Positions 3,776 to 54,906 are shown, counted from the stretch's first letter. The stretch is DNA of 64,000 nucleotides from Chloroflexota bacterium (GCA_016866215.1 VGNE01000006.1:36631-100630); one strand, 5' to 3'. A program made the numbers and translations. The notes: generated by a model not told the origin, from the sequence alone.

Positions 3776-4138
3776 ATGACCGATCAAACGTCCGCTGCCG
3801 AGTTGTCGCCACTGGATCAAATCCGACTGGTTGAAGCAGAAATAACACGCAAAATTGTCGCCGCACGGGAAGCATCTGAGCGCAGGGCGGCGGATGCGCG
3901 CGCGCAATCCACTCTTCTCAAAAAGCAGGCGCACGATTCCGGAAACCGCGAAGGGCAGATCCGTTACAAAGAGATCGTATCCAAAGCCGAAGAGGAGGCG
4001 CGGACAATTGTTGCGCATGCGCACAACCAGGCCGAAGAGCTCCGCCGAAAAGGACAAGCCCGCATGGAGGCGGCCATCCAGGAGGCTATTCACGTTGTCC
4101 TCGGGCTGAAAGGAGGTGGGAACTCAAATGAACCTTGA
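3776..4138 (+). CDS. V/A-type ATPase peripheral-stalk subunit (G, called H in some annotations)
   Basis: 120-aa charged coiled-coil protein (AEITRKIVAAREASERRAADARAQ...EEEARTIVAHAHNQAEELRRK). It is the first gene of the operon, as in the Thermus G-I-L-E-C-F-A-B-D order. RBS GGAGGA precedes the ATG. Confidence 0.6.
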   Translation: MTDQTSAAELSPLDQIRLVEAEITRKIVAAREASERRAADARAQSTLLKKQAHDSGNREGQIRYKEIVSKAEEEARTIVAHAHNQAEELRRKGQARMEAAIQEAIHVVLGLKGGGNSNEP

Positions 4139-6014
4139 AATGATCCCTGTTGAAATTGTGGGACTTAAAACCAATTTGCAGGCTGTTATTCGTATCATAC
4201 GGCAGATGGGTTGTATGCATATTGAAGAGTTGACTGATCTCCCCGAAGTTTCAGCGCGCCCGCTCTCGCTGGATCGGGATACGCTTCGTCAACAGGAGGA
4301 ACTCAGTTTACTTGTGGCGCGTGTTGGAGGATTACTGGATGCCTTGGGCGGCATCCATCAAAAGTCCGTGATTTCCTTGACGGGAAATTATCTGGCTGAG
4401 GCTCGCGCAGGTGTGGAAGAACTTATGCCTAAAGTGAAGGCGTTTACTTCGCAGCGCGAGCGGCTTGAATCCGAACTTACGTCCCTGCCGCGCTACGAGG
4501 CTACTTTACGCAAACTATTGCCGATCATCCCATCATCTGTGCGTGATGCGGGGAACAGGTCGGTGGGCATCCTGGTCAATCGGGAACACATGGACATCCT
4601 GGATGCAATCGGTAAACGTGTAGTTGACCTGACCCAGGGACGCGCCGAGGTGGTAGCCAGCGATGTGGATGTTGCCACGCGCGCCATGTTGATCGTCTTC
4701 CCCGAGAAATTCACAAACGAGATCGAAGCTCTGCTGGGCCGCGAGGATATTTCGCGTCTGCGTCTGCCTGCCGAGTTGGGAGACGGCTCTCCCGATGTTG
4801 TCCTTGCGGCCTTGTACCGCCGCATGGCATCCATCCCCGAACAGATTAAAGAGATCAACCGTGAACTGGCAAGCCTGTCTGCGCAATGGCGCGAAAAACT
4901 TGCTCTCTGGCGCGCCGTTTTGCAGGATGAGATCGAAGCCTCGCGCGTCTTGCCGCGCTTCGGCGAAACCGACCTGACCTTTGTGCTGGCAGGCTGGGTC
5001 CCAGCGAAAGAGATTGAACGAGTTGAAATGGCTCTTCGGGAGAACGTCGGCAATGAGGTGTTCATCCAGAAATTGAAGATGACTCCTGAAATGAAAAAAC
5101 GGGCGCCGGTCATCCTGCAAAATCCGCGACTCGCCAAACCTTTTGAGAGCCTGGTCAAACTGCTCGCCCTGCCGCGTTACGGACACATTGACCCGACGCG
5201 CCTGATGGCGTTCTTCCTGCCCATCTTCTTTGGCATGATCCTCGGTGACGTGGGTTATGGCATCCTGGCGCTGGCGCTCAGCCTCGGTTTTTTGCGCCGC
5301 TTCAAAGAAGGTGTGCTGCGCGACATTCTCATCGTGCTGGCGATGGGGGCGGGCTGGTCCATCCTGTTCGGCTTTTTGTATGGCGAGGCATTTGGCACAT
5401 TGGGCGAATATGTCGGGATGCACGCACTATGGTTCGACCGCACCAGTCCAGAACACGTAATGGGACTCCTCATTATGACTGTGGCAGTCGGCGCGGTTCA
5501 CGTTACGCTGGGTTTGATCCTCGGTGTGTGGGAAGCCATCAAAGACAAGAGTCGCAACCACCTGTTGGAGCGCGGCGGGATGCTCGTGGGCTTGATCGGT
5601 CTCTTTTTCATGGTCGGCGTGTTGACGGATTTCCTGCCGCAGGGATTCATGAGCGTTGCCATCGCCATCATCATTGTCGGCATCGTGTTGTTGAGCGCCT
5701 CGCTTGGCTGTCTGGGGATCGTGATGGGTCCCATCGAATTCATCACATTGGTCGGCAACGTGCTTTCCTATCTGCGTATCGCGGCCATCGGGCTGGCTTC
5801 CGTTTATCTGGCGAAAGTGGCAAACGAGGTGGCTGGGATCGCGGGCAATGTCGTCGTGGGCGCGATTCTCGCCATTTTGATCCATGCCCTGAATCTTGTC
5901 CTGGGCATGTTCAGCCCCATGATCCATAGTTTGCGTCTGCATTATGTGGAATTCTTCCGCAAGTTCTACGAAGGCGGCGGACGGCCGTATGAACCTTTCA
6001 GGAGTCGAATGTGA
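4128..6014 (+). CDS. atpI: V/A-type ATPase subunit I (membrane a-subunit)
   Basis: Soluble N-terminal half plus a C-terminal multi-TM half with the conserved SYLRIAAIGLAS...HSLRLHYVEFF region. Start chosen at ATG 4128 behind AGGAGG; the ORF track begins at 4116. Confidence 0.9.
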   Translation: MNLEMIPVEIVGLKTNLQAVIRIIRQMGCMHIEELTDLPEVSARPLSLDRDTLRQQEELSLLVARVGGLLDALGGIHQKSVISLTGNYLAEARAGVEELMPKVKAFTSQRERLESELTSLPRYEATLRKLLPIIPSSVRDAGNRSVGILVNREHMDILDAIGKRVVDLTQGRAEVVASDVDVATRAMLIVFPEKFTNEIEALLGREDISRLRLPAELGDGSPDVVLAALYRRMASIPEQIKEINRELASLSAQWREKLALWRAVLQDEIEASRVLPRFGETDLTFVLAGWVPAKEIERVEMALRENVGNEVFIQKLKMTPEMKKRAPVILQNPRLAKPFESLVKLLALPRYGHIDPTRLMAFFLPIFFGMILGDVGYGILALALSLGFLRRFKEGVLRDILIVLAMGAGWSILFGFLYGEAFGTLGEYVGMHALWFDRTSPEHVMGLLIMTVAVGAVHVTLGLILGVWEAIKDKSRNHLLERGGMLVGLIGLFFMVGVLTDFLPQGFMSVAIAIIIVGIVLLSASLGCLGIVMGPIEFITLVGNVLSYLRIAAIGLASVYLAKVANEVAGIAGNVVVGAILAILIHALNLVLGMFSPMIHSLRLHYVEFFRKFYEGGGRPYEPFRSRM

Positions 6015-6138
6015 TCCAAACCCTAAAGGTCTTTCTCGCAAAACGAGAGGCTGAATTTGCAAGAACGTATGCTTGAAACGCACTCTCGATTGCAAAGGAG
6101 ACCTTTGGGTTTTGGATAGTTACTACAAGGAGGCAAAA

Positions 6139-6381
6139 ATGGAAATTGACCTGACTACAATTGGAACCGGACTGACCGCAATCGGCGCGGGACTGGCAAT
6201 TGGCCTGGCTGCCGTCGGGACGGGTCTGGCGCAGGGACGGATTGGAGCGGCGGGGGCCGGCGTGATCGCCGAGAAACCAGAGGCGCTCGGGACGATGATC
6301 CTGCTCATCGCCATTCCCGAGACGATGGTCATTCTGGGCTTCGCAGTGGCGGCCATGCTGTTACTGCTTGGCGGCGAATAA
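6139..6381 (+). CDS. atpK: V/A-type ATPase proteolipid subunit K (c-ring)
   Basis: 80-aa two-helix hairpin with Gly/Ala-rich helix 1 and IAIPETMVILGF (carboxylate E) in helix 2. AGGAGG lies 6 nt before ATG 6139. Confidence 0.9.
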   Translation: MEIDLTTIGTGLTAIGAGLAIGLAAVGTGLAQGRIGAAGAGVIAEKPEALGTMILLIAIPETMVILGFAVAAMLLLLGGE

Positions 6382-6382
6382 G

Positions 6383-7009
6383 ATGAGTTTGCAGGCCATC
6401 CTCGGGAAGATCCGCGCTTCGGGAGAGGCGCAAGTTCAGGAGATCGAAAAGGGCGCGCAATCCCAGGTGAACGGGATACTGGCGCAGGCCCGGGTAGAAG
6501 CGCGCCAAATCGAAGAAGATGCCTGTGCGAATGCGAGCGCTCCAGCCATTGCGGAACGCGCGCGCATTCTCCATCGGGCGCGCCTGGAGTCTTTGCGGAT
6601 CGTCGGCGATGTGAGAGAAGTTCTGGTGGATACTGCCATCACCCGCACACGCGAACGCCTCGCCGCTGTCCGCGCGGATTCATCCTACCCGTCCGTGTTG
6701 CATACGCTGACCAAAGAAACGCTCGCTGAACTTGCATCAGGTGGAAAGGCCCAACTTCTGGCCGATCCACGCGACAGAGAGTTATTAAAAAATATACTCG
6801 GCGACTTGAAGTTGGATCTGCCCGTCAGTTACGAACTGAACTGCTGGGGCGGGCTGATTGCTAAAAGCGAAGATGGCCGCGTGGTTGTCATCAACACCTT
6901 CGAGTCCCGGCTGGAACGAGCAACCGCATTTTTACGCCACTATCTCGCGGCATTGTTTGAGGAGGAACAATCAGAGGTAAAACAAGTTGAGTTGATAGGG
7001 AGACCCTAA
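6383..7009 (+). CDS. atpE: V/A-type ATPase subunit E
   Basis: N-terminal coiled coil (LQAILGKIRASGEAQVQEIEKGAQSQV...) plus a globular C-terminal domain. Position in the operon fits. ATG 6383 lies 2 nt after the atpK stop. Confidence 0.8.
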   Translation: MSLQAILGKIRASGEAQVQEIEKGAQSQVNGILAQARVEARQIEEDACANASAPAIAERARILHRARLESLRIVGDVREVLVDTAITRTRERLAAVRADSSYPSVLHTLTKETLAELASGGKAQLLADPRDRELLKNILGDLKLDLPVSYELNCWGGLIAKSEDGRVVVINTFESRLERATAFLRHYLAALFEEEQSEVKQVELIGRP

Positions 7010-7146
7010 AGGTTTTTTAAGGTCTTCCTTCGTGACCACTTCGACACGGTGAGCGAAAGTCGAACCGTCAGTACAGGCTTTGTCCCTTCGTGTTTAAATC
7101 TTTTTCGGCTTGTCCGAGTTAGGGTCTGTTACCTGAAAGTTGTACT

Positions 7147-8220
7147 ATGGCTGATTATGATTACGGCAATGCGCGCATACACGTCATGAAATCCAGATTG
7201 CTTCCTCGACATGAACTGGAAACGCTGGCAGATGCAGGCAGCCTGCAGGGACTGATCGCGGCATTGACCAAAACCGTTTATCAGAAATCGGTTGAGGCCG
7301 CCCTGACGCGTGCCGCTGGTATGCAATGCATTGACGAGGCCCTGAGAACTGATCTCGTTAACACGGTTGGGAAGATGCGCGGCTTTTATATGGAAAGCGC
7401 TGGAAAGATGGTCGCGATTATTTTGCGAACTTACGATATTCATAACCTCAAGGCAATCCTGCGCGGACTCTCGAAGAATGTTCCCGCTGGCGATATTCTC
7501 ACGGTCTTACTGCCGATCGGCGAATTGAACATGAGTGTTCTCCGTGAATTGGCTCAGTTGAACAATCCACGCGAGGCGATAGACCTGCTCGCAAGCATGA
7601 GTCTTTCATTTGCCTGGCCGCTTCTTAACATGCGGGCGGAGGTTCCAGGCGCGGAGACATTCGAAATGGAATTGGCATTGGATCAGTGGTATTACGAAGA
7701 GTCCCGTCAAACGCTGCGAAGTGAGACAGGCATGGTAGACCCGCTGTCCTATGCCCTGGCGCTTGAGGCTGATCTGGCGAATGTGTTGACCGTCCTGCGT
7801 TTCGCCCAGGATCCGCACGAGCGCACCCTTTTGCGAGACCGGCTTGGCACTGACGAGATCGAGCATCTATTTATTGGGCAGGGGCGCATATCTTATGAAA
7901 TGCTCGCAAGCGCTTGCAGGCAGGATACGGTAACCAATGCCATAGAAACTCTGTCAGGAACATCCCTCGAACCGGCGTTGCGGACTGGATTGGAAGCCTA
8001 CGCGCGCTCGAATCGCCTGAGCGATATCGAAAGGCAACTGAAGCATTATCGGTTGGAATGGATGGCAGGGCAGATCACAAAAGACCCGCTGGGCATTGGC
8101 GTGGTTCTCGGCTATGTCGCGCTGAAGGTCAATGAAGTTGGCAACATTCGCTGGATCACGCAGGGGATCAACCTCGGGTTGAAAGCGGATGCCATTCGAG
8201 CGGAATTGGAGATGGTATGA
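7147..8220 (+). CDS. atpC: V/A-type ATPase subunit C (eukaryotic d homologue)
   Basis: 357 aa with the characteristic N-terminus DYDYGNARIHVMKSRLL and the repeated all-helical pattern, sitting between E and F. Confidence 0.85.
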   Translation: MADYDYGNARIHVMKSRLLPRHELETLADAGSLQGLIAALTKTVYQKSVEAALTRAAGMQCIDEALRTDLVNTVGKMRGFYMESAGKMVAIILRTYDIHNLKAILRGLSKNVPAGDILTVLLPIGELNMSVLRELAQLNNPREAIDLLASMSLSFAWPLLNMRAEVPGAETFEMELALDQWYYEESRQTLRSETGMVDPLSYALALEADLANVLTVLRFAQDPHERTLLRDRLGTDEIEHLFIGQGRISYEMLASACRQDTVTNAIETLSGTSLEPALRTGLEAYARSNRLSDIERQLKHYRLEWMAGQITKDPLGIGVVLGYVALKVNEVGNIRWITQGINLGLKADAIRAELEMV

Positions 8221-8341
8221 GCATTGATCTTAAACATTTGCGGCACTTGCGCAGGTTTGCAGCGCGACATTCATGTCGCCTTGCGCCGCCGAGCGACATA
8301 AATGTCGCGGTACGCCCCTGGTTGCGGTTGGAGACCTCGCT

Positions 8342-8689
8342 ATGAGTCAACTATTCGTTGTCACCCGCCCCGCCCTCGTCCCTGGTTTTCAATTGGCTGG
8401 GGTGGATGCTCATGGAGTGGAAGATGTGGAAGGCGCACAGGAGTTGATCGAAAAATGGATGACCGCTGGCGAGGTGGGTCTGCTGGCAATTGATGATGGC
8501 TTGCTGGCTCACATGGATACAGCCTTTTTGAAACGCCTCGCTTCTTCCGAGCATCTGCCCTACCTTGCGATTCCAGGCGGACAGCCTCTCGGCCCCGAAG
8601 CCTCGCAGAGACACCGCATCGCCGCGTTGATTCGGCGGGCGATTGGGTTTCATATTACTTTCAAGGGTGAGGAAGAAAGTGAAACGTAA
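8342..8689 (+). CDS. atpF: V/A-type ATPase subunit F
   Basis: ~115 aa, MSQLFVVTRPALVPGFQLAGVDAH...GLLAIDD, typical of subunit F. ATG 8342 is preferred over the upstream start in the ORF track. Confidence 0.8.
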   Translation: MSQLFVVTRPALVPGFQLAGVDAHGVEDVEGAQELIEKWMTAGEVGLLAIDDGLLAHMDTAFLKRLASSEHLPYLAIPGGQPLGPEASQRHRIAALIRRAIGFHITFKGEEESET

Positions 8690-8839
8690 AAGAGTCTCTT
8701 GCAAAAAGGTTCTTAAACACGAAGGACACGAAGTACACAAAGGTTTAAACAACAAAAGAACTTTCCTTCGTGTTCCTTTGTGGACTTTGTGTTTAATTGG
8801 TTTTTAGGGAACCTTTGGATCTTGAGAAAGTAGTGACGA

Positions 8840-10633
8840 ATGAACGAAACTGAAAATAACCTCGGCAAGATAATCCGCATTGCAGGCCCCGTCGTGAGGG
8901 CGGTGGGACTGGAAAACGTCCGTTTGTATGACGTTGTGCGCGTCGGTGAATTGGGACTCGTCGGGGAGGTCATCCGTCTTTCGGAGGGACTGACCACGAT
9001 TCAAGTCTACGAAGATACATCGGGAATCTGCGTGGGAGAACCAGTTCGTAGCACAGGGCTTCCCCTCGTTGTCCAGTTGGGGCCAGGCTTGCTGGAACAG
9101 GTGTACGATGGCCTGCAGAGGCCGCTGAAAATTTTGGCCGAAGGGAGCGGAGAATTTATCCAGCGCGGTGTGTATGCGTCGCCGTTGCCCGAAGATAAAC
9201 GCTGGCATTTTACGCCGCGCGTTTCTGTTGGCGAGGTTGTCGGCGCGGGCGATATTTTGGGCGTGGTTCCCGAATCGCGGACGATTGAACATCGCATCAT
9301 GGTTCCGCCTCACCAGCGCGGACGGGTGGTCAGTATCCGCGCAGGGGAGTTTAACGTCAATGAAACGGTGGCCGTTATCGGGTCGGAGAATGAAGCGGGA
9401 GTCGAAGCGGAGATCACACTCGTCCAGCGTTGGCCCGTCCGCCAGCCGCGTCCATGCCAGACGCGTCTCGCGCCGCGTGAACCGTTGCTCACAGGGACGC
9501 GCATCATTGACGCGTTTTTCCCTGTCGCCAAAGGCGGTTCGGCAATCATCCCTGGAGGATTTGGGACGGGGAAGACCGTGACCGAACACAGCCTCGCGCG
9601 CTGGGCGGATGCGGATGTGGTGGTCTACGTGGGATGCGGCGAACGCGGCAATGAGATGACCGAGGTGCTGGAGGAGTTCCCGAAACTGGAAGACCCGCGC
9701 ACGGGCGCGCCGTTGATGGAACGCACAGTGCTGATCGCCAACACGTCGAACATGCCTGTGGCGGCGCGGGAGGCGAGTATTTATACGGGCATCACGATTG
9801 CAGAGTATTACCGCGACATGGGCTACGATGTGCTCATGCTGGCCGATTCCACTTCGCGCTGGGGGGAGGCGTTGCGCGAGATTTCCGGGCGTTTGGAGGA
9901 AATGCCTGGCGAGGAGGGCTACCCCGCTTATCTGGCCGCGCGCCTGGCTGAATTTTATGAGCGCTCTGGCAGGGTTATTTGTTTGGGTAATCATGGTAAT
10001 TCAGATACGCAGGGACGCATGGGTTCTGTCTCGGTGGTTGGCGCGGTGTCGCCTCCTGGCGGCGATTTTTCGGAACCTGTGACCCAAAACTCGATGCGCG
10101 TAGCAAGCACCTTCTGGGCATTGGATTACGATCTCTCACGCCGCCGTCACTTTCCCGCCATCAACTGGACGAGCAGTTATTCACTTTATAATTTTCGCGA
10201 TTGGTTCGAGCGCGAAGTGGCTACCGATTGGGACGAGTTATCGCATGAAGCCATGGCATTGCTTCAGCGTGAAGTTGAACTGCTCGAGATCGTTCAGTTG
10301 GTTGGTCCCGATGCGCTGGCTGAGCCTGAACGAGCCGTGCTGGCAGTCGCGCGCATGTTGCGCGAAGATTTCCTCCAGCAATCGGCATATCGCGATGTAG
10401 ATCGCTACTGTTCGATCCAAAAGGCTTACTGGATGCTCAAGACGATCATGGATTTTTATCATCATACGCAGGCCGCACTGGAATCAAAAATACCCTTGGA
10501 ACGCGTGACGGCTCTGCCTGTCGTTTCCGATATTGCGCGCATGAAAGAATTCCAGGCGGATGCCGCCGAAAAGGAAATACGCGCCATCATGGATCGCGTG
10601 CAATTCAGTTTCGCAGATTTGGGAGTTGCCTGA
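8840..10633 (+). CDS. atpA: V/A-type ATPase catalytic subunit A
   Basis: 597 aa with Walker [10 protein letters not shown], the non-homologous insert region typical of A subunits, and GERGNEM, DSTSRWAEA-like and [12 protein letters not shown] motifs. Confidence 0.95.
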
Positions 10634-10634
10634 A

Positions 10635-12068
10635 ATGCTCAAGACGATGCCTCTTCCCCGCCTGTTTACCACCGAATATCGCACACTCTCCCAGATCAGG
10701 GGTCCGCTGATCTTCGTCGAACGCATCGCGGATGTGGCTTACAACGAGATCGTGGAGATCATCGCTCCCGATGGCGATGTGCGGATTGGACAAGTATTGG
10801 AGGTGGATAAGCAGCGCTGTATGGTTCGCATCTTTCTCGGGACCTCGGGCCTGGATCTCGAACGAACGCGCATTCGCTTCACTGGAGATGTGGCGCGCCT
10901 CGGCGTCTCGCTTTCAATGCTGGGACGCGTCTTGAACGGGTCTGGTCAGCCCATTGACGGCGGCCCGCCCATCATCCCCGAAAGATCGCTCGATATCAAC
11001 GGACTGCCGATCAACCCCTCGATGCGGACACACCCAAGCGAGTTCATCCAGACGGGAGTCTCAGCCATTGACGGTCTCAACACACTGACGCGCGGCCAGA
11101 AACTTCCCATCTTTTCTGGCGCGGGTCTGCCCGCGAACGAACTGGCCGCGCAGATCGCGTCGCATGCGCGCGTGGTCGGTGGAAATAAGACAGGAGAGTC
11201 CGAAGGCGAAGGAAGCGAACCGTTCGCAGTGGTCTTCGCCGCAATCGGGATCACACAGCGCGAGACATCTTTCTTCATGGATCAATTCCGCGCCAGCGAC
11301 GCGATGGATCGTACCGTGTTGTTCGTCAACCGCGCGGACGATCCGTCCATTGAACGTTTGCTGACTCCGCGCGCGGCTTTGACGGTGGCGGAATATCTGG
11401 CGTTTACGCATCATCGTCACGTGCTGATCATCCTGACGGATATGACCAACTACTGCGAGGCACTGCGCGAAATCGCCGCGGCCAGTGAGGAAGTGCCGGG
11501 CAGGCGCGGCTATCCGGGTTACATGTATTCGGACCTGGCAAGTTTGTACGAACGTTCGGGACGCATCCACGGCAACCCCGGCTCGGTGACGCAATTGGTG
11601 ATCCTGACCATGCCCGATGACGACATCACTCATCCCATCCCGGACTTGACCGGATACATCACCGAGGGACAGATCGTGTTGAGCCGCGACTTGCACCGAA
11701 AAGGTATTTCCCCGCCCATTGATGTTTTGCCATCCCTCTCGCGGCTGATGAACGAGGGCATCGGCACAGGAAAGACTCGCGCCGATCACCGCTCCGTCGC
11801 CGATCAACTCTATGCCCTGTATGCCGAAGGCCGTGACTTGCGCCGACTGGTGGCGATCATTGGCGAAGCGGCATTGTCCTCGGAGGATCGCCGTGTGCTA
11901 AATTTTGCCAGACGCTTTGAAGAAATTTTCATTGGGCAGGGAGTGGTCAACCGCGAAATCGTCGAGACGCTCGATCAGGCATGGGAGTTGCTCTCCCCCA
12001 TGCCCGTCGAATTGCTCAAACGGATTCCGAAGGAATTCACTGAGCAATATCATAAACACAAAACGTAA
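10635..12068 (+). CDS. atpB: V/A-type ATPase subunit B
   Basis: [16 protein letters not shown]...[22 protein letters not shown]...[32 protein letters not shown] 10635 lies 1 nt after the atpA stop. Confidence 0.95.
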
Positions 12069-12134
12069 CGCGGCATTTATGTCGCAACTGAGAGGCGAGA
12101 TCAATCTTGCGGTACGAGTGGAGCAGATAGAGAA

Positions 12135-12782
12135 ATGAGCAACGTATCAGTCACCCGCATGGAACTTTTGGCCCGCAAGGCGCAAATTGCACTGGCGAGT
12201 CAGGGACGTGACCTGCTGGAACAAAAGCGCACGGCTTTGATGAAGGAGTTCATGCGTACTGCCGATACCGCGTTGGAACGTTCGGACGCGCTTCAAGTTT
12301 CCGCTGCCCATGCCAGCCAGTCACTTGCAAGGTCTGAGGCGATGGCGGGGGCGGAGTCTGTTCGCTCGGCCGCGTTGGCCTCTCGCGGCGGATTCAGTCT
12401 CGAGGTCACGACCAGAAGCGTGATGGGGGTGAGAGTCCCGCACATCGAGCAGAAAAGCGCATCCCGTTCATTGCTGGAACGAGGGTACTCGATTGTCGGC
12501 GCTTCGATCACGATTGATGAAACCGCTTCGGCTTTTGAACGGGAAGTCGAAGCCATCATCCAACTTGCCGAGACCGAACTGCGTCTCGCGCGCCTGGGCG
12601 ATGAAATCCAGCGCACGTCCAGGCGGCTGAATGCGCTTGATCATTTTTTGATCCCGCGTCTCAAAGCGGAACGGGATTTCATCCAGATGGCTTTGGATGA
12701 ACGCGAACGCGCCGATCATTTTCGGCTCAAACTGGTGAAGCGTTCCCTGGAACGGAAGCGAGAAATGGAAAAGCCCAGGTGA
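12135..12782 (+). CDS. atpD: V/A-type ATPase central-stalk subunit D
   Basis: 215 aa, VTRMELLARKAQIALASQGRDLLEQKRTALM...RRLNALDHFLIPRL, the last canonical gene of the operon. Confidence 0.9.
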   Translation: MSNVSVTRMELLARKAQIALASQGRDLLEQKRTALMKEFMRTADTALERSDALQVSAAHASQSLARSEAMAGAESVRSAALASRGGFSLEVTTRSVMGVRVPHIEQKSASRSLLERGYSIVGASITIDETASAFEREVEAIIQLAETELRLARLGDEIQRTSRRLNALDHFLIPRLKAERDFIQMALDERERADHFRLKLVKRSLERKREMEKPR

Positions 12783-35263: not shown

Positions 35264-36682
35264 ATGACTAACTGGAATAACACCCACGTACTTATTTTAG
35301 GAGCCGCCCGCCAGGGACTCGCCCTGGCTCGCTGGCTTTCCCGTCGCGGTTCACACGTGACCTTGAGTGACTCACGCAATGCGGATGAACTCGCCTCCGC
35401 CCGAGCCTCCCTCGCGGATACGAATGTGACATGGGCAGTCGGTGGGCATCGGCTGGAATTGCTTGAAAACGTTGATGTGCTCTGTCTTTCCGGCGGCATC
35501 CCGCTGACATTGCCCATCGTGCAGGCGGCGATCAAGCGTGGCATACCGCTTTCGAACGATACGCAAATTTTCATGGAAGTTGTTCCATGCAAGACAATTG
35601 GCATTACTGGCTCAGCAGGTAAGACAACGACCACGACATTGGTTGGAGAAATGGCGAAAACAGACCATGGACGACAGACCGTTGACCATGCATCGTCAAT
35701 CGTCAATCGTCAATCGTCAATGGTCTATGTCGGCGGCAACATCGGTGATCCTCTAATAAATTATGTAGATGACATGACAGCCGATGACCTCGCCATTCTT
35801 GAGATTTCTTCTTTTCAATTGGAGCAGATGACTATCTCACCAAATATCGCGGCGATTCTAAATATCACGCCCAATCATTTGGATCGCCACGGCATAATGG
35901 AAGCATACACTGCGGCAAAGGCGCGCATTTTGGAATTTCAAACTGAGAAAGACACGGCAATTCTCAGTCACGATGACAAAGGCGCGTGGAGTCTACGCAA
36001 TAAAGTCAAAGGCAGGTTGCTGACGTTCAGCTTGAATGATTTGGATGAAGGTTTAAGCGGCGCATATCTGCACGATGAATTATTGAACCTGCGCGATGGA
36101 AACGCGTACCTGCCTTTGATCCTGCGAGAAAAGATTCAATTGCGCGGTGATCATAATGTAGCGAACGTGCTTGCTGCATTCACGATCGGTCACGCGGCCG
36201 GTTTTAAACTCGACGACATGCTCGAAGCCGTTGAAGAATTTCGCGGCGTACCGCACAGGCTCGAATTCGTCCGCGAATTGCATGGTGTGCGCTGGTACAA
36301 CGACTCGATCGCAACTGCGCCAGAGCGAAGCATGGCGGCCATCCATGCGTTTGATGAACCAATCGTGCTGATGCTTGGCGGGCGTGATAAAGATTTACCC
36401 TGGGATGAACTCGCAAAACTGATTCACGAACGCGTGGATCATGTGGTGCTTTTTGGTGAAGCGGCAGAACTGATCGAGAAAGGCGTAGCAGGTGTCGGCG
36501 GCGGACGAAGCGTTGACCTTCACCGCGCAAATAATCTTAAAGAGGCAGTTTTCATCGCCGCAGAAATTGCAGCAGCTGGAGACATTGTCCTGCTTTCACC
36601 GGGCGGTACAAGTTATGACGCGTTCAGCGATTTTGCTGAGAGAGGAGAAACTTTTAGAAAATGGGTACTGGAACTTTCCTAA
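35264..36682 (+). CDS. murD: UDP-N-acetylmuramoylalanine--D-glutamate ligase
   Basis: N-terminal Rossmann VLILGAARQG, P-loop GITGSAGKTTTTTL, then a ~20-aa extra segment before VGGNIGDPL, and a GGRDKD C-domain. Confidence 0.9.
   Translation: MTNWNNTHVLILGAARQGLALARWLSRRGSHVTLSDSRNADELASARASLADTNVTWAVGGHRLELLENVDVLCLSGGIPLTLPIVQAAIKRGIPLSNDTQIFMEVVPCKTIGITGSAGKTTTTTLVGEMAKTDHGRQTVDHASSIVNRQSSMVYVGGNIGDPLINYVDDMTADDLAILEISSFQLEQMTISPNIAAILNITPNHLDRHGIMEAYTAAKARILEFQTEKDTAILSHDDKGAWSLRNKVKGRLLTFSLNDLDEGLSGAYLHDELLNLRDGNAYLPLILREKIQLRGDHNVANVLAAFTIGHAAGFKLDDMLEAVEEFRGVPHRLEFVRELHGVRWYNDSIATAPERSMAAIHAFDEPIVLMLGGRDKDLPWDELAKLIHERVDHVVLFGEAAELIEKGVAGVGGGRSVDLHRANNLKEAVFIAAEIAAAGDIVLLSPGGTSYDAFSDFAERGETFRKWVLELS
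35692..35719. repeat. (ATCGTCA)x4 heptanucleotide tandem repeat inside murD
   Basis: Four consecutive perfect ATCGTCA units read directly. They translate as part of HASSIVNRQSSMV. The reverse complement resembles the intergenic AGACCATTGACGATGGACAATTGACC at 47596-47621. Confidence 0.9.
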
Positions 36683-37929: not shown

Positions 37930-38932
37930 AACCTTGTGGGTTGGTGGTGAAGGCGGCATGGAAGAGGAACTCGTGAATCGCGCGGGCATCTCTTATCGTT
38001 CCATACCTGCTGCGGGTGTGCATGGCGTCGGCTTGCGCGCCTTGCCGCGCAATATTGCAAAACTCTCTCGCGGCGTGAAGGCTTCACGTCGCCTTTTGCG
38101 CGAGTTTAAACCCGATATCCTTTTCTTCACCGGTGGATTCGTTGCCGTGCCCATGGCTGTTGCCGGTCGAAACATTCCAACCGTATTATATGTGCCTGAT
38201 ATTGAGCCGGGCCTTGCGCTCAAATTTCTTTCTCGTTTTGCGGATGTCGTCAGTGTGACTGCATCTGAGTCAAAAAAATATTTCCCTCAGAAGTGGAAGC
38301 TTGTCCTCACAGGTTACCCGCTTCGCGCTGACCTCTCAAACTGGTCGCGCGAAAAAGCGACTCAGCGCTTTGGGTTTGATCCTAATAAACCCATACTACT
38401 TGTCACTGGCGGAAGCCAGGGCGCGCGTTCGATCAACATGGCGGTCTTGAAGCATCTCAACGAGTTATTGGATGTGTCACAAATCATTCACATCACAGGA
38501 TCTTTGGATTGGCCTGTCATTGAGAAAGCCGCGCAGGAATTGCCCAGGCATTTAAGATCTCATTATCATGCCATGCCATATTCGCATGAGATGGGCGCAG
38601 CGCTTGCCGCCGCAGATTTAGTGCTCGCGCGCGCGGGCGCATCCTCATTGGGAGAATATCCCTTCTTTGGTTTGCCCGCAGTACTCGTGCCGTATCCGTA
38701 TGCTTGGCGATACCAAAAGGTGAACGCCGATTTTCTCGCCGAACGCTATGCGGCTGTCATTTTGCAGGATGAATCATTGAAAGATAAACTCCTGCCCATA
38801 ATAAAAGACTTGTTGCTTAATAATAAAAAACTTGAAGCCATGCGTGCCGCAATGAAAAAGCTATCACATCCCAATGCGGCAAGCGTAATCGCCAGCCAGT
38901 TGGTTGAATTGGCAGGAGAGCAACCCTCATGA
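37835..38932 (+). CDS. murG: Undecaprenyldiphospho-muramoylpentapeptide beta-N-acetylglucosaminyltransferase
   Basis: VRLLICAGGTGGGVYPALAV..., LLVTGGSQGARSIN. GTG 37835 lies 7 nt after GGAGG; ATG 37814 is an alternative. Either start overlaps the ftsW 3' end by ~95-115 nt. Confidence 0.9.
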   Translation: MRLLICAGGTGGGVYPALAVHNALTSQHPNVETLWVGGEGGMEEELVNRAGISYRSIPAAGVHGVGLRALPRNIAKLSRGVKASRRLLREFKPDILFFTGGFVAVPMAVAGRNIPTVLYVPDIEPGLALKFLSRFADVVSVTASESKKYFPQKWKLVLTGYPLRADLSNWSREKATQRFGFDPNKPILLVTGGSQGARSINMAVLKHLNELLDVSQIIHITGSLDWPVIEKAAQELPRHLRSHYHAMPYSHEMGAALAAADLVLARAGASSLGEYPFFGLPAVLVPYPYAWRYQKVNADFLAERYAAVILQDESLKDKLLPIIKDLLLNNKKLEAMRAAMKKLSHPNAASVIASQLVELAGEQPS

Positions 38933-39486
38933 TGAGTATCATTTATATCTTTTGGATGTATGTCATTCTCTTTGCAGTGATCGGCGCGATGCGTGGATGG
39001 GCAAAGGAATTGCTGGTCGCATTCAGTGTCATCACCGCGCTGGCAGTTAATTTACTTTTGGAGAAATACGTTCCCCTTGTGAAGAACCTCGCTGTCCCTG
39101 CCGATCTTGCCCAACCGGGCGTAGACGCCCTCAGGTCCCTGTTTTGGATACGCACCATCATCCTGATCGCGCTGGTTTACTTTGGGTACCAAACAGTAGT
39201 CATCGCGCGATTTGCATCCAAAGCCGTGCGCGAGCGTTTACAGGATTCGCTCTTCGGCGCAGTGCTGGGTGGCTTGAATGGCTATTTGGTCGCTGGCACC
39301 ATCCTGTTCTATAACCACATGGCAAATTATCCGTATCCGAAAATCATCAGCCCCGCCACCGATCAAGCTTTCATCCAGGCTGTCGAGACGATGATGAAAT
39401 ACATGCCTCCGCGCTTTTTAGGCGAGCCTGGCATATATTTTGCTGTCATTATCATCCTGATCTTTATTATTGTGGTGTATATCTAA
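38929..39486 (+). CDS. CvpA-like small polytopic membrane protein inserted in the dcw cluster
   Basis: 185 aa, 4-5 TMs. The N-terminus LFAVIGAMRGWAKELLVAFSVITAL resembles the CvpA family pattern. ATGA overlap with the murG stop. Confidence 0.45.
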   Translation: MMSIIYIFWMYVILFAVIGAMRGWAKELLVAFSVITALAVNLLLEKYVPLVKNLAVPADLAQPGVDALRSLFWIRTIILIALVYFGYQTVVIARFASKAVRERLQDSLFGAVLGGLNGYLVAGTILFYNHMANYPYPKIISPATDQAFIQAVETMMKYMPPRFLGEPGIYFAVIIILIFIIVVYI

Positions 39487-39490
39487 CCTT

Positions 39491-39587
39491 GCGTCATTGT
39501 GAGGAGGGTGTTCTCCCCGACGAAGCAATCCTCAACTTTACAGGAGATTGCTTCGAGCAAAGAGCAAGAGCGCCCTCGCAATGACAT
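39491..39587. repeat. Nested palindromic (REP/MITE-like) element
   Basis: The outer arms are GCGTCATTGTGAGG (39491-) and CCCTCGCAATGAC (-39585). The inner hairpin is CGAAGCAATC (39521-30) with GATTGCTTCG (39546-55). A half-copy CTCCTCGCAATGACG lies at ~61762-61776. Confidence 0.7.
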
Positions 39588-39709
39588 TAGGAACTTAGAA
39601 GTTAAATGCTTGTACAAAAAACAAGAATTTTTGCACCGCGAAGTCGCGAAGGTTGCCAAGAAAACCTATTAAAAATCTTCGCGTTCTTCGCACCTTCGCG
39701 GTAAAACTC

Positions 39710-39730
39710 TTTCGGCTTGTCCGAGTTAGG
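39710..39730 (+). repeat. 21-nt motif TTTCGGCTTGTCCGAGTTAGG just upstream of murC (identical copy at 7103-7123 upstream of atpC)
   Basis: The two 21-mers are identical by direct comparison. Both end 10-24 nt before a start codon and follow CTTCG(T/C)G-rich repeats. Confidence 0.8.
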
Positions 39731-39739
39731 AATTAACTT

Positions 39740-42101: not shown

Positions 42102-43262
42102 TTGAACAAACTTCGTGTGGCAGTGTTATTTGGAGGTCGTTCCGGCGAACATGATGTTTCGCTGATGTCTGCGCGCTCCGTGCTTGCCGCGCTTGACCCC
42201 AAAAAATACGAAGTGACCCAGGTTGGTATAACGCTCGATGGCGAATGGCTGACCGGCCATAATACGCTTGATGCCTTTGTGAGCGGAAATATTAAGGAAT
42301 TGAATCGGGTGATTCTGCCGGGCGATCCTTCGCATTCCGCTCTTTATGAATTACAAATGCCCACCCGCCCGAAAGAACAGCAGGATAAGGTGAGTAAGGT
42401 TGCAGGGAGAGATCACGGTGAGGTGATTAAAAAACTTGCCGATATTGACGTTTTTTTTCCGGTTCTACACGGGCCGTTTGGTGAAGACGGCACCCTGCAA
42501 GGTCTGCTTGAACTGGCGGATGTGGCCTATGTGGGCGCAGGTGTGGTCGGTTCGGCCGTTGGCATGGACAAAGGCATCTTCAAGGACGTTATGCGCGCCA
42601 ACAATATTCCGATTGTTGATTCACTGCTTATTCTGCGAAGCGAAATTGAAAACGATTTGAATACTGTAATTGAAAACGTTGAAAAGCTGGGAGCGTATCC
42701 ATTCTTTGCGAAGCCTGCCAACCTGGGTTCTTCGGTTGGCATCAGCAAATGCAATTCACGTTCCGATCTTGGCGAAGGCTTGCTGGAAGCCGCACGTTAT
42801 GACCGCCGCATTATCATTGAGCGCGGTGTGGGTAAAGTGCGTGAAGTGGAAGTCAGTGTGCTGGGCAACGAAGATCCCCAGGCTTCTGTTTGCGGTGAAG
42901 TCCTGCCGAGCCGCGAATTCTATTCCTACGAATCAAAATATGTGGATGGCACGTCCGGCCTCGTTATCCCTTCACAATTGCCCGATCAAATTACGGACAA
43001 AATTCGTGAGTATGCGATCAGCGCCTACAAAGCCATAGACTGCGCAGGTATGGCGCGCGCTGATTTCTTTGTTGAAGACGATACGCTCAAGATTTACTTG
43101 AATGAACTTAATACATTGCCAGGTTTTACATCCATTAGCATGTATCCAAAACTGTGGCAGGCAAGCGGCATGACCTATTCCGAACTGGTTGACCGTCTGA
43201 TCGAACTTGCGCTGGAACGCAAGCGCCAGCGTGATCACACACAGCATCGGAGAACGGCATGA
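42102..43262 (+). CDS. ddl: D-alanine--D-alanine ligase
   Basis: LRVAVLFGGRSGEHDVSLMSA, FPVLHGPFGEDGTLQGLLE, ELNTLPGFTSISMYPKLW. TTG 42102 just after the murB stop is preferred; the ORF track starts at 42054. Confidence 0.9.
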   Translation: MNKLRVAVLFGGRSGEHDVSLMSARSVLAALDPKKYEVTQVGITLDGEWLTGHNTLDAFVSGNIKELNRVILPGDPSHSALYELQMPTRPKEQQDKVSKVAGRDHGEVIKKLADIDVFFPVLHGPFGEDGTLQGLLELADVAYVGAGVVGSAVGMDKGIFKDVMRANNIPIVDSLLILRSEIENDLNTVIENVEKLGAYPFFAKPANLGSSVGISKCNSRSDLGEGLLEAARYDRRIIIERGVGKVREVEVSVLGNEDPQASVCGEVLPSREFYSYESKYVDGTSGLVIPSQLPDQITDKIREYAISAYKAIDCAGMARADFFVEDDTLKIYLNELNTLPGFTSISMYPKLWQASGMTYSELVDRLIELALERKRQRDHTQHRRTA

Positions 43263-44263
43263 GCGACAGACGCGAACTTTCCCGCGCTGAGCTCGTCCGT
43301 CACCGTCGTGCGCAACGCACTCTGAATGAGTTTGAACAAACCGCCAGGCGCGCGCCCAAGCCGATTGTGCCGGTCACTTCACGCACACCCACGCTTGCGG
43401 TTACATCCAAATTCAGGCCGGCGGCCAAGCCCCGCCGATTTAATGTTGCGCTTGGGTTACCTGGAATACTTTTACATAGGCCAAACATTTCCATCCCGCG
43501 TTTGCATGCAAATTGGCGGATTATCTCCGGTATTATTGCGTTATTGCTTGGCGCTGCTATTTATTTGGCTCTCACGCTTCCATACTTTTTTGTCCCTGCC
43601 GCAACCGTGCTGAGTAATAATCGTTTAAGCACGGAAGAGATCAACGCGGTGCTTGGCCTTACGGGTCAATCCATTTTTATCGTCCAGCCACAAGATGCTG
43701 AAACACGCCTGTTGATGAACTATCCTGAACTGCTATCAGCGGAAGTGAAAGTTTATTTGCCGAACCATGTTTATGTTACCGTCAGCGAGCGCCAGCCTGT
43801 CATTCTTTGGCAAATAGGCGAAGGCTATACCTGGATTGATCAGGCCGGCGTGGCATTCCGTCCCAGAGGTTTTGTGGATGCACTGGTTCCGGTCATTGCT
43901 TTGGATGAACCGCCCGCAGGCGCTGGACTGGACCCCCTCGGCCCGCCGCCGTATATGCAAAAAGAATTAGTGGATGCAATTCTCGCTCTTTCTCCGCTTG
44001 TGCCTGCTGGCTCGACCATGACATTCGACTCGGCCGATGGCCTTGGCTGGGCCGATCCGCGCGGTTGGAAAGTTTCCTTTGGCACAAGTGCAATAGACAT
44101 GCCTTTGAGGATGCTCGTGTATCAATCGCTGGTTGATTCCTTGAACGCGCGCGGCAGGTTGCCTGAAATCATTAATGTCGTCCATGCCGATGCGCCTTTT
44201 TATCGCCTGGCTGATAATGCAATTGAAGATGCAACCGAAGAAATAGTGAGCAGTGGACAATAA
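43259..44263 (+). CDS. ftsQ: FtsQ/DivIB-type cell-division protein
   Basis: Basic N-tail, a single TM (IISGIIALLLGAAIYLAL), a POTRA-like segment (VKVYLPNHVYVTVSERQPVILWQ), and ATGA overlap with ddl. Confidence 0.75.
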   Translation: MSDRRELSRAELVRHRRAQRTLNEFEQTARRAPKPIVPVTSRTPTLAVTSKFRPAAKPRRFNVALGLPGILLHRPNISIPRLHANWRIISGIIALLLGAAIYLALTLPYFFVPAATVLSNNRLSTEEINAVLGLTGQSIFIVQPQDAETRLLMNYPELLSAEVKVYLPNHVYVTVSERQPVILWQIGEGYTWIDQAGVAFRPRGFVDALVPVIALDEPPAGAGLDPLGPPPYMQKELVDAILALSPLVPAGSTMTFDSADGLGWADPRGWKVSFGTSAIDMPLRMLVYQSLVDSLNARGRLPEIINVVHADAPFYRLADNAIEDATEEIVSSGQ

Positions 44264-44264
44264 G

Positions 44265-45621
44265 ATGGATGAGATCGTTGTAGGAATAGACGTAGGCACA
44301 ACCAAGGTTTGCACCCTTGTTGGGCGGGTGGAGGATGAAAAATCCATCCGCATCCTTGGCGTTGGTATTGAACCATCGGAGGGAATTCGCAAAGGCATTA
44401 TTGTAGACCTCCCGGCCGCAGCCCAAGCCATCAAACGTTCAGTTGAAAAGGCGGAACATACTTCTGGTTTGGAGATCACCACTGGGTTGGTTAGTCTTGC
44501 GGGTGCGCATGTTTCATCGGTCAACAGCCGCGGCCCAAGCCATCAAACGTTCAGTTGAAAAGGCGGAACATACTTCTGGTTTGGAGATCACCACTGGGTT
44601 GGTTAGTCTTGCGGGTGCGCATGTTTCATCGGTCAACAGCCGCGGCGCGACGGGCGTGCCGGGTGGAATTATTGACGCAATGGATATAGCGCGCGCGCTC
44701 GAACAGGCGCAGGCAGTTGCCATTCCGCATGACCGCGAGATCGTGCATGTCATTCAGCGCGGCATCACTGTGGACGGCCAGGGAGGCGTGAAGACCCCTA
44801 TTGGGATGCACGGCTTCAAACTTGAAGTGGAAACACATATCATCACCGCCGCCGCCGCAACCGTGGATAACCTGCGTCAATGTGTGGGCGCAGCCGGTGT
44901 TGATATTCAACAATTCGTTTTGAATCCGCTTGCCTCTGCTGAAGTGGTCCTGACAGCGCAGGAGCGCCAGATGGGAGTTGCGGTTTGCGATATCGGCGGC
45001 GGCACCACCGACCTGGCAATTTATGTCAACGACGATGTCTGGCACACCATGGTGTTGGCCGTTGGCGGCAACCAGGTCACACAAGACATTGCTCATGGGT
45101 TGCGTTTGCCCTTGTCTCAGGCGGAGGAAATTAAGAAGCAGCAAGGCTATGCTGTTCGGTCCGAAATAGGAAGCGATGAGTATTTTTCCATCCGTCCATT
45201 TGGCGAAGATCATGATGTCAAGATCAATCGTCAAGACCTGGCTTACATCATCGAAGCCCGTATTGAAGAAACTTTTGGTTTGATCCTGCAGGAAATTAAA
45301 CGCTCCGGTTATGATGGTTTGCTTCCCGCAGGCATGGTATTAACGGGCGGCACTTCTGCCTTGCCCGGTATCAAACGGATAGCAAGCGAAATTTTGGGAA
45401 TGCCCGTGCGTACGGCAAAACCTGAAAACCTCACGGGACTTGTTGATAAATTGAATTCGCCTGCCTATTCCACAAGTGTGGGGCTGTTACGCTGGGTCAC
45501 CACCATGCGTGAACAGGATGTTCCAGTTTCAGGTGGTAATAAAAAACGCCGCAGATCACAAGGAGAGAAAAATATGAATTTTGAGGCAGTCAAAAATTGG
45601 ATGAAAAGATTACTTCCGTAA
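44265..45621 (+). pseudogene. ftsA: ftsA, reading frame broken by a 112-bp tandem duplication
   Basis: N-terminal ORF MDEIVVGIDVGTTKVCTLVGR... stops at 44558. The rest (…ATGVPGGIIDAMDIARAL...GGGTTDLAIY...LTGGTSALPGI) is in the frame of ORF 44443..45621. Removing one repeat copy gives a single 1245-nt ORF. Confidence 0.85.
44421..44644. repeat. Perfect direct tandem duplication, 2 x 112 bp
   Basis: 44421-44532 and 44533-44644 are identical at every position (compared in 10-nt blocks). The junctions share GCCGC(A/G)GC. Confidence 0.95.
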
Positions 45622-45736: not shown

Positions 45737-46897
45737 ATGGACTCGATCAAAAGAAATCTGCAAGCCGAAGCCTTTGCCCGCATTAAAGTAATTGGCGTGG
45801 GTGGTGCCGGCCAAAATGCCGTTAACCGCATGATGGAAGAGGGCATTCAAGGCGTTGAATTTATCGCCGCCAATACGGATGCGCAAGCGCTTACGCTTTC
45901 ACGCGCGCCTGTTCGTGTGCGCCTAGGAGACAAAATCACACGCGGGCTGGGCGCGGGCGGAGACCCTGAGATCGGCCGCAAAGCCGCTGAAGAATCAGCT
46001 GACGAATTGTACAACGTGCTTAAAGGCGCGGATATGGTTTTCGTAACAGCGGGTATGGGCGGCGGCACCGGTACAGGCGCGGCTCCTGTTGTTGCGCAAG
46101 TGGCAAAGGAATGCAGCGCCCTCACCATTGGTGTGGTCACACGTCCCTTTACATTTGAAGGCGGCAAGCGCTCGCAATCTGCTGAATCGGGTGTGACAAA
46201 AATGAAGGAACACGCGCACACACTGATCTCCATCCCGAATGACCGTTTGCTTCAGCTGGCTGATAAAAAATCATCCCTGCAGGATGCTTTCCGCATGGCA
46301 GATGAAGTTCTGCATCAAGGGATTCAAGGCATCTCCGAGTTGATCACCATCCCTGGTTTGATTAACCTCGATTTTGCCGATGTGCGTACCATCATGTCTG
46401 AAGGCGGCGCGGCGCTTATGGCAGTCGGTCGCGGCTCCGGTGATGAACGCGCGAAACAAGCGGCCGAACAAGCCATCTCAAGCCAACTGCTGGATATCAC
46501 CATTGATGGCGCGCGCGGCGTGCTCTTCAATATGACCGGCGGCTCGAACATGACCCTCTTTGAGGTCAATCAGGCCGCGGCAATTATCCGCGAAACGGCT
46601 CATCCTGATGTCAACCTGATCTTCGGTGCAGTCATTGACCCGGAAATGGGTGACGAGATTCGCGTCACCGTCATCGCAACTGGGTTTGACCGCAGCGGAG
46701 TCCCGCGCCGCGCTTTGGAACGCCCCCTGCGGAACGACAGGCTCGTCTCGGCTTCCAATACGCCTTTCACCCGCCAGAATGAATCCGTCACTGTGAACGC
46801 TGATTACAAACCTGCTTCCGAATCGAAATCCGCTTCACAACCGATCATCCATAGCGACGATCTGGACGTCCCGACATTTTTGAGAAATAGGAGATAA
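45737..46897 (+). CDS. ftsZ: Cell-division GTPase FtsZ
   Basis: [17 protein letters not shown], tubulin signature [14 protein letters not shown]-terminal [10 protein letters not shown] peptide. AGGAGG RBS. Confidence 0.95.
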
Positions 46898-47646: not shown

Positions 47647-47661
47647 ATACCAACCCTTTCT

Positions 47662-47724
47662 TCAACCTTGAACCTTCAACCTTCAACCTTCAACCTTCAA
47701 CCTTCAACTTTAAACTTTAAACTC
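47662..47724. repeat. Heptanucleotide tandem array, 9 units (TCAACCT consensus, degenerating to TAAACTT)
   Basis: Read directly: TCAACCT TGAACCT TCAACCT x4 TCAACTT TAAACTT TAAACTC, ending 6 nt before the ycaQ-like ATG. Confidence 0.9.
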
Positions 47725-51000: not shown

Positions 51001-51306
51001 GTCCACATCCAATGCCGCTTCGCAGCCCCGCCCAATTAGGTTTATACTATGCTCAGGCAGTGTCCCGTTCCCCCTAGGGGGACGATGTCGACGAGGTGTC
51101 CGCGCCTGCCTTGGTGGCTGACTGGCGAAGCCGTGTCGAATCCTATTGCCGCTGCCCATAGGCGCTTCGCGGCGCAAACTATTCGGCGGCTTCCTTTTTC
51201 ATACCACAAAAGCCTTGATCTCAGCCTGGAAATAGCCTCCTCGGTGACGACGAAATCAGCAAGCGCTTTGGCTCGTAAGTAATGGAATTATTTGGGAGAT
51301 TGGCAC

Positions 51307-54906
<3,600 letters not shown>

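Follow-up and report, generated by a model that had tools for sequence, protein, structure and literature searches.

Slipped-strand mispairing is an established mutational mechanism, and tandem duplications between short direct repeats are ascribed to RecA-independent misalignment mutagenesis, as in E. coli lacI (reviewed by Lovett). In some systems tandem duplications act on a phenotype. Tandem-duplication phase variation is described for cap3A, in the type 3 capsule of Streptococcus pneumoniae (Waite et al. 2001, summarised in PMC11163986), and according to that summary the duplications recur at a measurable level, differ in length and in position, act on a surface trait that the cell can dispense with, and have been demonstrated to revert. 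Tandem duplications are likewise involved in the phenotype conversion of Ralstonia solanacearum (Poussier et al. 2003, cited in bioRxiv 10.1101/2023.04.27.538605); as far as the citing preprint describes it, a spontaneous duplication knocks out phcA and the phenotype can revert. Recurrence with demonstrated reversion is the defining feature of both systems. The gene concerned here, ftsA, is essential in E. coli, while its loss in B. subtilis leaves cells viable but filamentous, with SepF as an overlapping anchor, and an active Z-ring can be formed there from FtsZ plus SepF (PMC11790237).

The window analysed in this study is a 64-kb stretch of DNA that carries a tandem duplication inside ftsA. 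Copy 1 (44421..44532, plus strand) and copy 2 (44533..44644, plus strand) are identical in 112 of 112 bases by direct comparison, and the exact period-112 identity spans 114 nt, with 44421-44534 equal to 44533-44646. Tandem Repeats Finder (TRF) returned a period of 112, 2.1 copies and a score of 457, and no further occurrence of the 112-bp unit was found elsewhere in the window. Chance falls far short of explaining an exact tandem repeat of 114 nt. Copy 1 encodes FtsA residues 53-89 plus 1 nt, and copy 2 is extra DNA that is missing in all other assemblies compared. As 112 equals 3x37+1, the result is a frameshifted null allele of ftsA. The frame that opens with the ATG at 44265 comprises 89 FtsA codons, goes out of frame in copy 2 and, after eight out-of-frame codons (GPSHQTFS region), ends with a TGA at 44556-44558, which delimits the ftsA 5’ fragment (44265..44558, plus strand). 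The remainder of the gene is read by a maximal ORF at 44443..45621, which translates copy 2 as AAAQAIKRSVEKAEHTSGLEITTGLVSLAGAHVSSVNSRG and runs on as FtsA to the usual stop; the publicly annotated 3’ fragment (44509..45621, plus strand, 370 aa, P0124) lacks FtsA residues 1-49. No single ORF in the window thus contains the whole FtsA, which occupies one continuous ORF of 1245 nt in the same-strain and related contigs described below, and removal of one copy from the window sequence gives the same 1245 nt and an FtsA of 414 aa. The preliminary description of this DNA had claimed the base-for-base identity of the copies, the frame break with a stop at 44558, a reading of copy 2 by the second ORF that equals that of copy 1 in the first frame, and the rescue of the gene by deletion of either copy with 1245 nt restored; all of this was reproduced by comparison and translation, and the rescued protein shows full Pfam matches. 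Programmed ribosomal frameshifting was considered as a way to rescue the frame and was rejected: the ribosome would have to shift by +1 before 44556, and inspection revealed no recognisable site for this.

The restored 414-aa protein matches Pfam FtsA (PF14450, 1.4e-43, in two stretches) and SHS2_FTSA (PF02491, 3.6e-24, residues 80-157), its best match in the PDB is the FtsA structure 7q6f (E 1.9e-71, residues 2-380), and its closest named homologues come from Anaerolineales, including Candidatus Villigracilis. The duplicated unit (residues 53-89 plus 1 nt) lies across the border of subdomain 1A with the SHS2 (1C) insert, which begins at residue 80. As expected for a dcw cluster, ftsA sits between ftsQ (43259..44263, plus strand, POTRA_1), directly upstream, and ftsZ (45737..46897, plus strand), directly downstream. 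The description of all other dcw genes as intact was borne out from mraZ through ftsZ, that is for mraZ, rsmH, an ftsL-like gene, ftsI, a Mur ligase gene (murE/F), mraY, murD, ftsW, murG, cvpA, murC, murB, ddl, ftsQ and ftsZ. The ORFs downstream of ftsZ gave no Pfam matches. The 5’ product of the broken allele is predicted to consist of 89 native and eight foreign residues and to retain the DVGTTK phosphate-1 loop and nothing else, while a 3’ product would need an internal start, either the ATG at 44509 or the TTG at 44581. Judged from these translations, neither fragment should be functional alone. By analogy with ftsA loss-of-function mutants, the predicted consequence is loss of the membrane tether of FtsZ, with a division block or filamentation.

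Comparison contigs were obtained by exact-protein look-ups with FtsZ, FtsQ and other proteins of the window. They came from the Lake Tanganyika metagenomes IMG 3300020198, 3300020220, 3300020603 and 3300020074, from Logan assemblies of several SRA runs and from Hainich groundwater assemblies at 99% identity. The Lake Tanganyika IMG identifiers are listed by Tran et al. 2021 (PMC8245535), according to whom HiSeq 2500 reads (2x150 bp, insert about 240 bp) were assembled with metaSPAdes 3.12, each sample on its own. Contig Ga0194120_10000557 (70,326 bp, IMG 3300020198) shows 100.000% identity to the window over 2135-60875 (58.7 kb), two length differences aside, namely the 112-bp duplication and a homopolymer at 53478 (C35/G9 in the window, C36/G8 in Ga0194120_10000557); the sole BLAST mismatch, at 44532, is the A/G of a short repeat at the alignment edge. 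With zero substitutions in 58.7 kb, the one-copy and two-copy alleles must have parted extremely recently. The same extreme clonality, zero substitutions over 58.7 kb, extends to contigs from several SRA runs and from no fewer than three further samples of Lake Tanganyika.

The exact intact FtsA of 414 aa (P0121) was found on seven same-strain contigs. For six of these (IMG 3300020198 and 3300020603; Logan SRR16108672, SRR7985589, SRR7052952 and SRR7008372), DNA comparison showed a single copy and no junction 41-mer TTCATCGGTCAACAGCCGCGGCCCAAGCCATCAAACGTTCA. The Logan contigs, built with k=31, run unbroken through the duplication site with one copy. An eighth same-strain contig, from IMG 3300020220, is partial, ending within ftsA, and also holds one copy only. 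The assembly of that sample breaks within ftsA at 44874-44905, some 260 bp past the duplication site and perhaps from low coverage, where Ga0194119_10033989 ends at 44905 and Ga0194119_10058477 starts at 44874, giving a 32-nt overlap of two contigs that are both 100% identical to the window. The number of independent same-strain samples is about 4 to 7, since JGI samples and SRA runs may in part represent identical data. The alignment with ftsA of close relatives, which the preliminary description had proposed as a check, showed one in-frame copy in five relatives as well as in the same-strain contigs: the Hainich contig (L003) at 99% identity, and three metagenome contigs and the Anaerolineales MAG SMAG_U8289 (together L005-L008) at 96-97%, with SMAG_U8289 as the nearest named genome (97%). 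The Hainich contigs, from groundwater in Germany, represent an unusually close relative from a very distant habitat. In total, the junction occurs in none of about 12 independent contigs of the same strain and relatives, and a scan of metagenome and genome contigs with a 38-mer internal to the unit returned single-copy contigs only. The C-fragment of the two-copy allele, P0124 (370 aa), has a single source in the protein collection, a contig of 103,790 bp that is found in both JGI/IMG and NCBI, from which it follows that the window is a slice of a metaSPAdes contig that has also been deposited within a MAG. None of nine other candidate start variants was present in that collection, and exact-protein look-ups of the 392-aa and 97-aa fragments returned no contig.

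The wider protein comparison gave FtsA lengths of 411-431 aa in all 120 nearest FtsA clusters (84-95% identity). The two-copy state as the ancestral one was rejected, FtsA being about 414 aa in all relatives down to 84% protein identity. Between the intact ftsA and relatives at 98-99% nucleotide identity there are 21-26 synonymous and 2 non-synonymous codon differences and no gaps, a pattern that shows a functional gene under purifying selection within the lineage, so that the two-copy allele is not an old pseudogene. The two-copy state is derived, extremely recent and not conserved.

The edges of the duplicated unit carry short direct repeats. The upstream repeat GCCGCAGC (44415..44422, plus strand) and the downstream repeat GCCGCGGC (44639..44646, plus strand) are ancestral, and in all single-copy relatives they lie 112 bp apart and bound the interval. 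The novel junction (44527..44534, plus strand), within the junction 41-mer, bears GCCGCGGC, the downstream version, and the order in the window is therefore GCCGCAGC-unit-GCCGCGGC-unit-GCCGCGGC. The microhomology at the junctions, previously given as GCCGC(A/G)GC, was hence recovered as the 8-mers GCCGCAGC, GCCGCGGC and GCCGCGGC. Window-wide, an 8-mer match of at least 7/8 touches an arbitrary breakpoint at 112-bp spacing at about 0.3% of positions, which makes a coincidental microhomology unlikely and is evidence against a plain end-to-end joining of overlapping contig ends. The ftsA gene contains 149 8-mer pairs of this quality (7/8) that are spaced 30-300 bp apart, and folding of the unit revealed no unusual DNA secondary structure (z = 0.19). 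With repeat pairs this common and DNA structure this ordinary, the site is not specially built for slippage. The window gave no Rfam matches. The locus shares the features of slipped-strand duplications: imperfect repeats at both ends, a repeat-unit-repeat-unit-repeat order, the downstream variant at the junction, perfect copies and a private, recent allele. It is the same in kind, with the difference that it is seen here only in a metagenome contig. In mechanism the event is an ordinary microhomology-mediated tandem duplication, or else an artefact.

We regard a very recent slippage duplication, carried as a null ftsA allele by a subpopulation in one sample, as the best reading of this locus, with a probability of roughly 0.5. 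The comparisons show the structure of the duplication, its derived state, its privacy to one contig, the microhomology and the purifying selection on ftsA; we infer an in-vivo origin, a slippage mechanism and the status of a subpopulation. Slipped-strand mispairing or template switching would have taken place between the imperfect 8-bp repeats GCCGCAGC and GCCGCGGC in wild-type ftsA: a nascent strand on which the downstream repeat was already copied would have re-paired with the upstream repeat, and the interval would have been copied a second time, so that the variant left at the junction is the downstream (G) one. The product would be a stub of the 89 N-terminal residues and a C-terminal remainder without the ATP-binding N-terminus, and within an Anaerolineales strain its carrier would be a subpopulation, perhaps no more than one clonal clump or filament, in a single sample from Lake Tanganyika, with the intact single-copy ftsA retained elsewhere in the same strain. 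The two 112-bp repeats could collapse to wild type by recombination or slippage, with no sign that this is selected or programmed.

Two of the origins offered in the preliminary description survive, an assembly or consensus artefact and a very recent duplication. The duplication is missing in seven full contigs and one partial contig of the same strain and in five relatives. The microhomology is the signature of a polymerase event and speaks for a real allele. Against it stands that a frameshift in a conserved division gene should be strongly deleterious and hardly reach the frequency needed to enter a consensus contig. The artefactual alternative holds that a chimeric or PCR-template-switched fragment, or an assembler heuristic, placed the junction into one metaSPAdes contig of an organism that is single-copy throughout; a chimera may have been amplified as PCR duplicates, a loop may have been traversed, or tips may have been joined via a short imperfect overlap. 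We hold this to be a serious possibility, nearly as likely as a real recent mutation. It would account for a two-copy allele that is confined to a single contig and for a junction that appears in only one of about eight assemblies of a 100%-identical strain, with k=31 Logan contigs crossing the site with one copy; it would also fit the perfect identity of both copies, the biologically unexpected null allele in a conserved division gene under purifying selection, and the fact that the only remaining difference from the sister assembly is an assembly-hostile poly-C/poly-G hairpin. In-vitro polymerases switch templates at microhomology, and template switching during library PCR leaves the same microhomology signature, so that the chance rate of about 0.3% speaks against concatenation but not against this route. 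On the other hand, a junction written by a de Bruijn assembler requires junction-spanning k-mers in the reads, and a microhomology of 8 bp with 7/8 matches falls well below every k used. The exact repeat of 112-114 nt corresponds to none of the usual SPAdes k values (21, 33, 55, 77, 99 and 127), the window is free of N, neither an N gap nor a contig boundary marks the junction, and random chimeras seldom attain assembly coverage. SPAdes may traverse simple loops with minority read support once, and its gap closer may join graph tips through short imperfect overlaps, a step that could itself select for microhomology. By either route a junction that is rare or spurious could end up in the contig. 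Our literature search returned no directly applicable source on tandem-duplication misassemblies by metaSPAdes.

The two further options of the preliminary description, an on/off switch and a tolerated split FtsA, gained no positive evidence. As a reversible switch, the out-of-frame duplication would turn ftsA off and precise loss of one copy would turn it on again, with a bet-hedging subpopulation of non-dividing filaments as the outcome, in analogy to the phase variation of cap3A. The structure is indeed that of known duplication switches, a perfect tandem duplication within an ORF with a length that is not a multiple of three. Like the cap3A duplications it turns the gene off and its exact loss would restore it, and like those in phcA, as the citing preprint presents them, it would be a spontaneous knock-out. 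Perfect 112-bp repeats are intrinsically unstable, and hence reversion is mechanistically possible. We nevertheless consider a switch very improbable. Whereas cap3A duplications recur, the present duplication is a single observation on a single contig, affects a core division gene and does not recur in about 12 related contigs: the junction is missing in all seven to eight same-strain contigs (six full and one partial by DNA comparison) and in all five close relatives, which carry the unit once and in frame, the outcome that the preliminary description had named as speaking for a dead-end mutation rather than a switch, and none of the 120 nearest clusters has an FtsA of aberrant length. Unlike ftsA, phcA is, in the preprint’s account, a regulator whose variants are selected in culture and revert in planta. 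A switch also has to be reconciled with the ordinary nature of the short repeats (149 comparable 7/8 8-mer pairs in ftsA), with a unit devoid of special DNA structure (z = 0.19) and with an off state that halts proliferation. The literature search for ftsA with tandem duplication and frameshift found nothing relevant and no ftsA duplication switch. The more specific idea is slightly less probable again: the duplication would be one visible case of an ftsA switch by which a filamentous Anaerolineales population keeps a few of its cells in a non-dividing, elongating but revertible state, a form of bet-hedging that reaches filamentation by mutation. Just as remote is a two-copy allele fixed in a viable sub-lineage that tolerates a split FtsA or dispenses with FtsA, either by reassembly of the fragments or by compensation through another membrane anchor of FtsZ such as SepF. 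FtsA is not essential in every bacterium, as B. subtilis with FtsZ and SepF illustrates (PMC11790237), and in-frame starts for a C-fragment do exist at the ATG at 44509 and at the TTG at 44581, which follows an AGGCGGA-like stretch. Against this, the break lies inside subdomain 1A, at its boundary with SHS2 (from residue 80), the C-fragment lacks residues 1-49 including the phosphate-binding DVGTTK loop and the N-fragment has lost all the rest. A split RNase-H-like subdomain might conceivably reassemble, but nothing supports this. Neither a split nor an expanded FtsA occurs in the 120 nearest protein clusters, ftsA is strongly conserved in the lineage, the zero substitutions since the event give no indication of persistence over time, and no sepF is present within the 64-kb window.

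The main value of the finding is that of a quality flag: on a contig of 103,790 bp that is public both in IMG and within an NCBI MAG, ftsA is broken, and its 370-aa annotation is unrepresentative of the organism. Seven other assemblies of the identical strain carry ftsA intact. If the junction is real, the locus would be a small and clean natural case of microhomology-mediated tandem duplication, with an allele that is lethal or nearly so caught in the wild, in a freshwater population of high clonality; this would be useful for mutation-spectrum work and unsurprising to specialists. Only a duplication that recurs across samples would make this a regulatory principle of a new kind, in which mutation switches a division gene.

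Several other features were noted in the window. Upstream of the dcw region, the V/A-type ATPase operon at 4116-12782 is complete (subunits I, c, E, C, F, A, B, D). Inside murD (35264..36682) the heptamer ATCGTCA is repeated 4.9 times at 35692-35725, and the Logan contigs L024 and L026 stop at 35721. At 39486-39735, between the cvpA-like gene (38929..39486) and murC (39740..), the intergenic region measures about 250 bp, compared with about 72 bp in SMAG_U8289, and the alignments to the 96-97% relatives L007 and L008 break there; the extra 180 bp or so carries GTCATTGTGAGGAG...CCCTCGCAATGAC and GCGAAG-rich arms as inverted repeats and is suggestive of a small MITE-like insertion in the dcw cluster. 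Just 3’ of the small ORFs after ftsZ, at 47660-47722, the heptamer CTTCAAC is repeated seven times (also readable as a 21-mer repeated three times). The 96% relative L005 aligns with an offset at this repeat and the Logan contig L013 begins inside it; the copy number probably varies.

The homopolymer site that also differs from Ga0194120_10000557 lies at 53471-53535 and consists of CGGTTTAC followed by C35, GAC, G9 and TAAACCG, forming a perfect G:C hairpin and a poly-proline run when translated. It is located within an ORF (51292..54906) for a 1199/1204-aa Cache-HAMP-GAF-PAS-HD sensor. HiSeq 2500 instruments use four-colour chemistry, and so the G tract should not be a two-colour poly-G artefact. 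Five independent same-strain assemblies end at or within the C run. The tract may be a hypervariable homopolymer, possibly a contingency locus, or a site that defeats all short-read assemblies. In IMG 3300013138, 3300013125 and 3300013136 it reads C10-12 GAC G8, and the sensor gene is split there into 731/744 and 439 aa.
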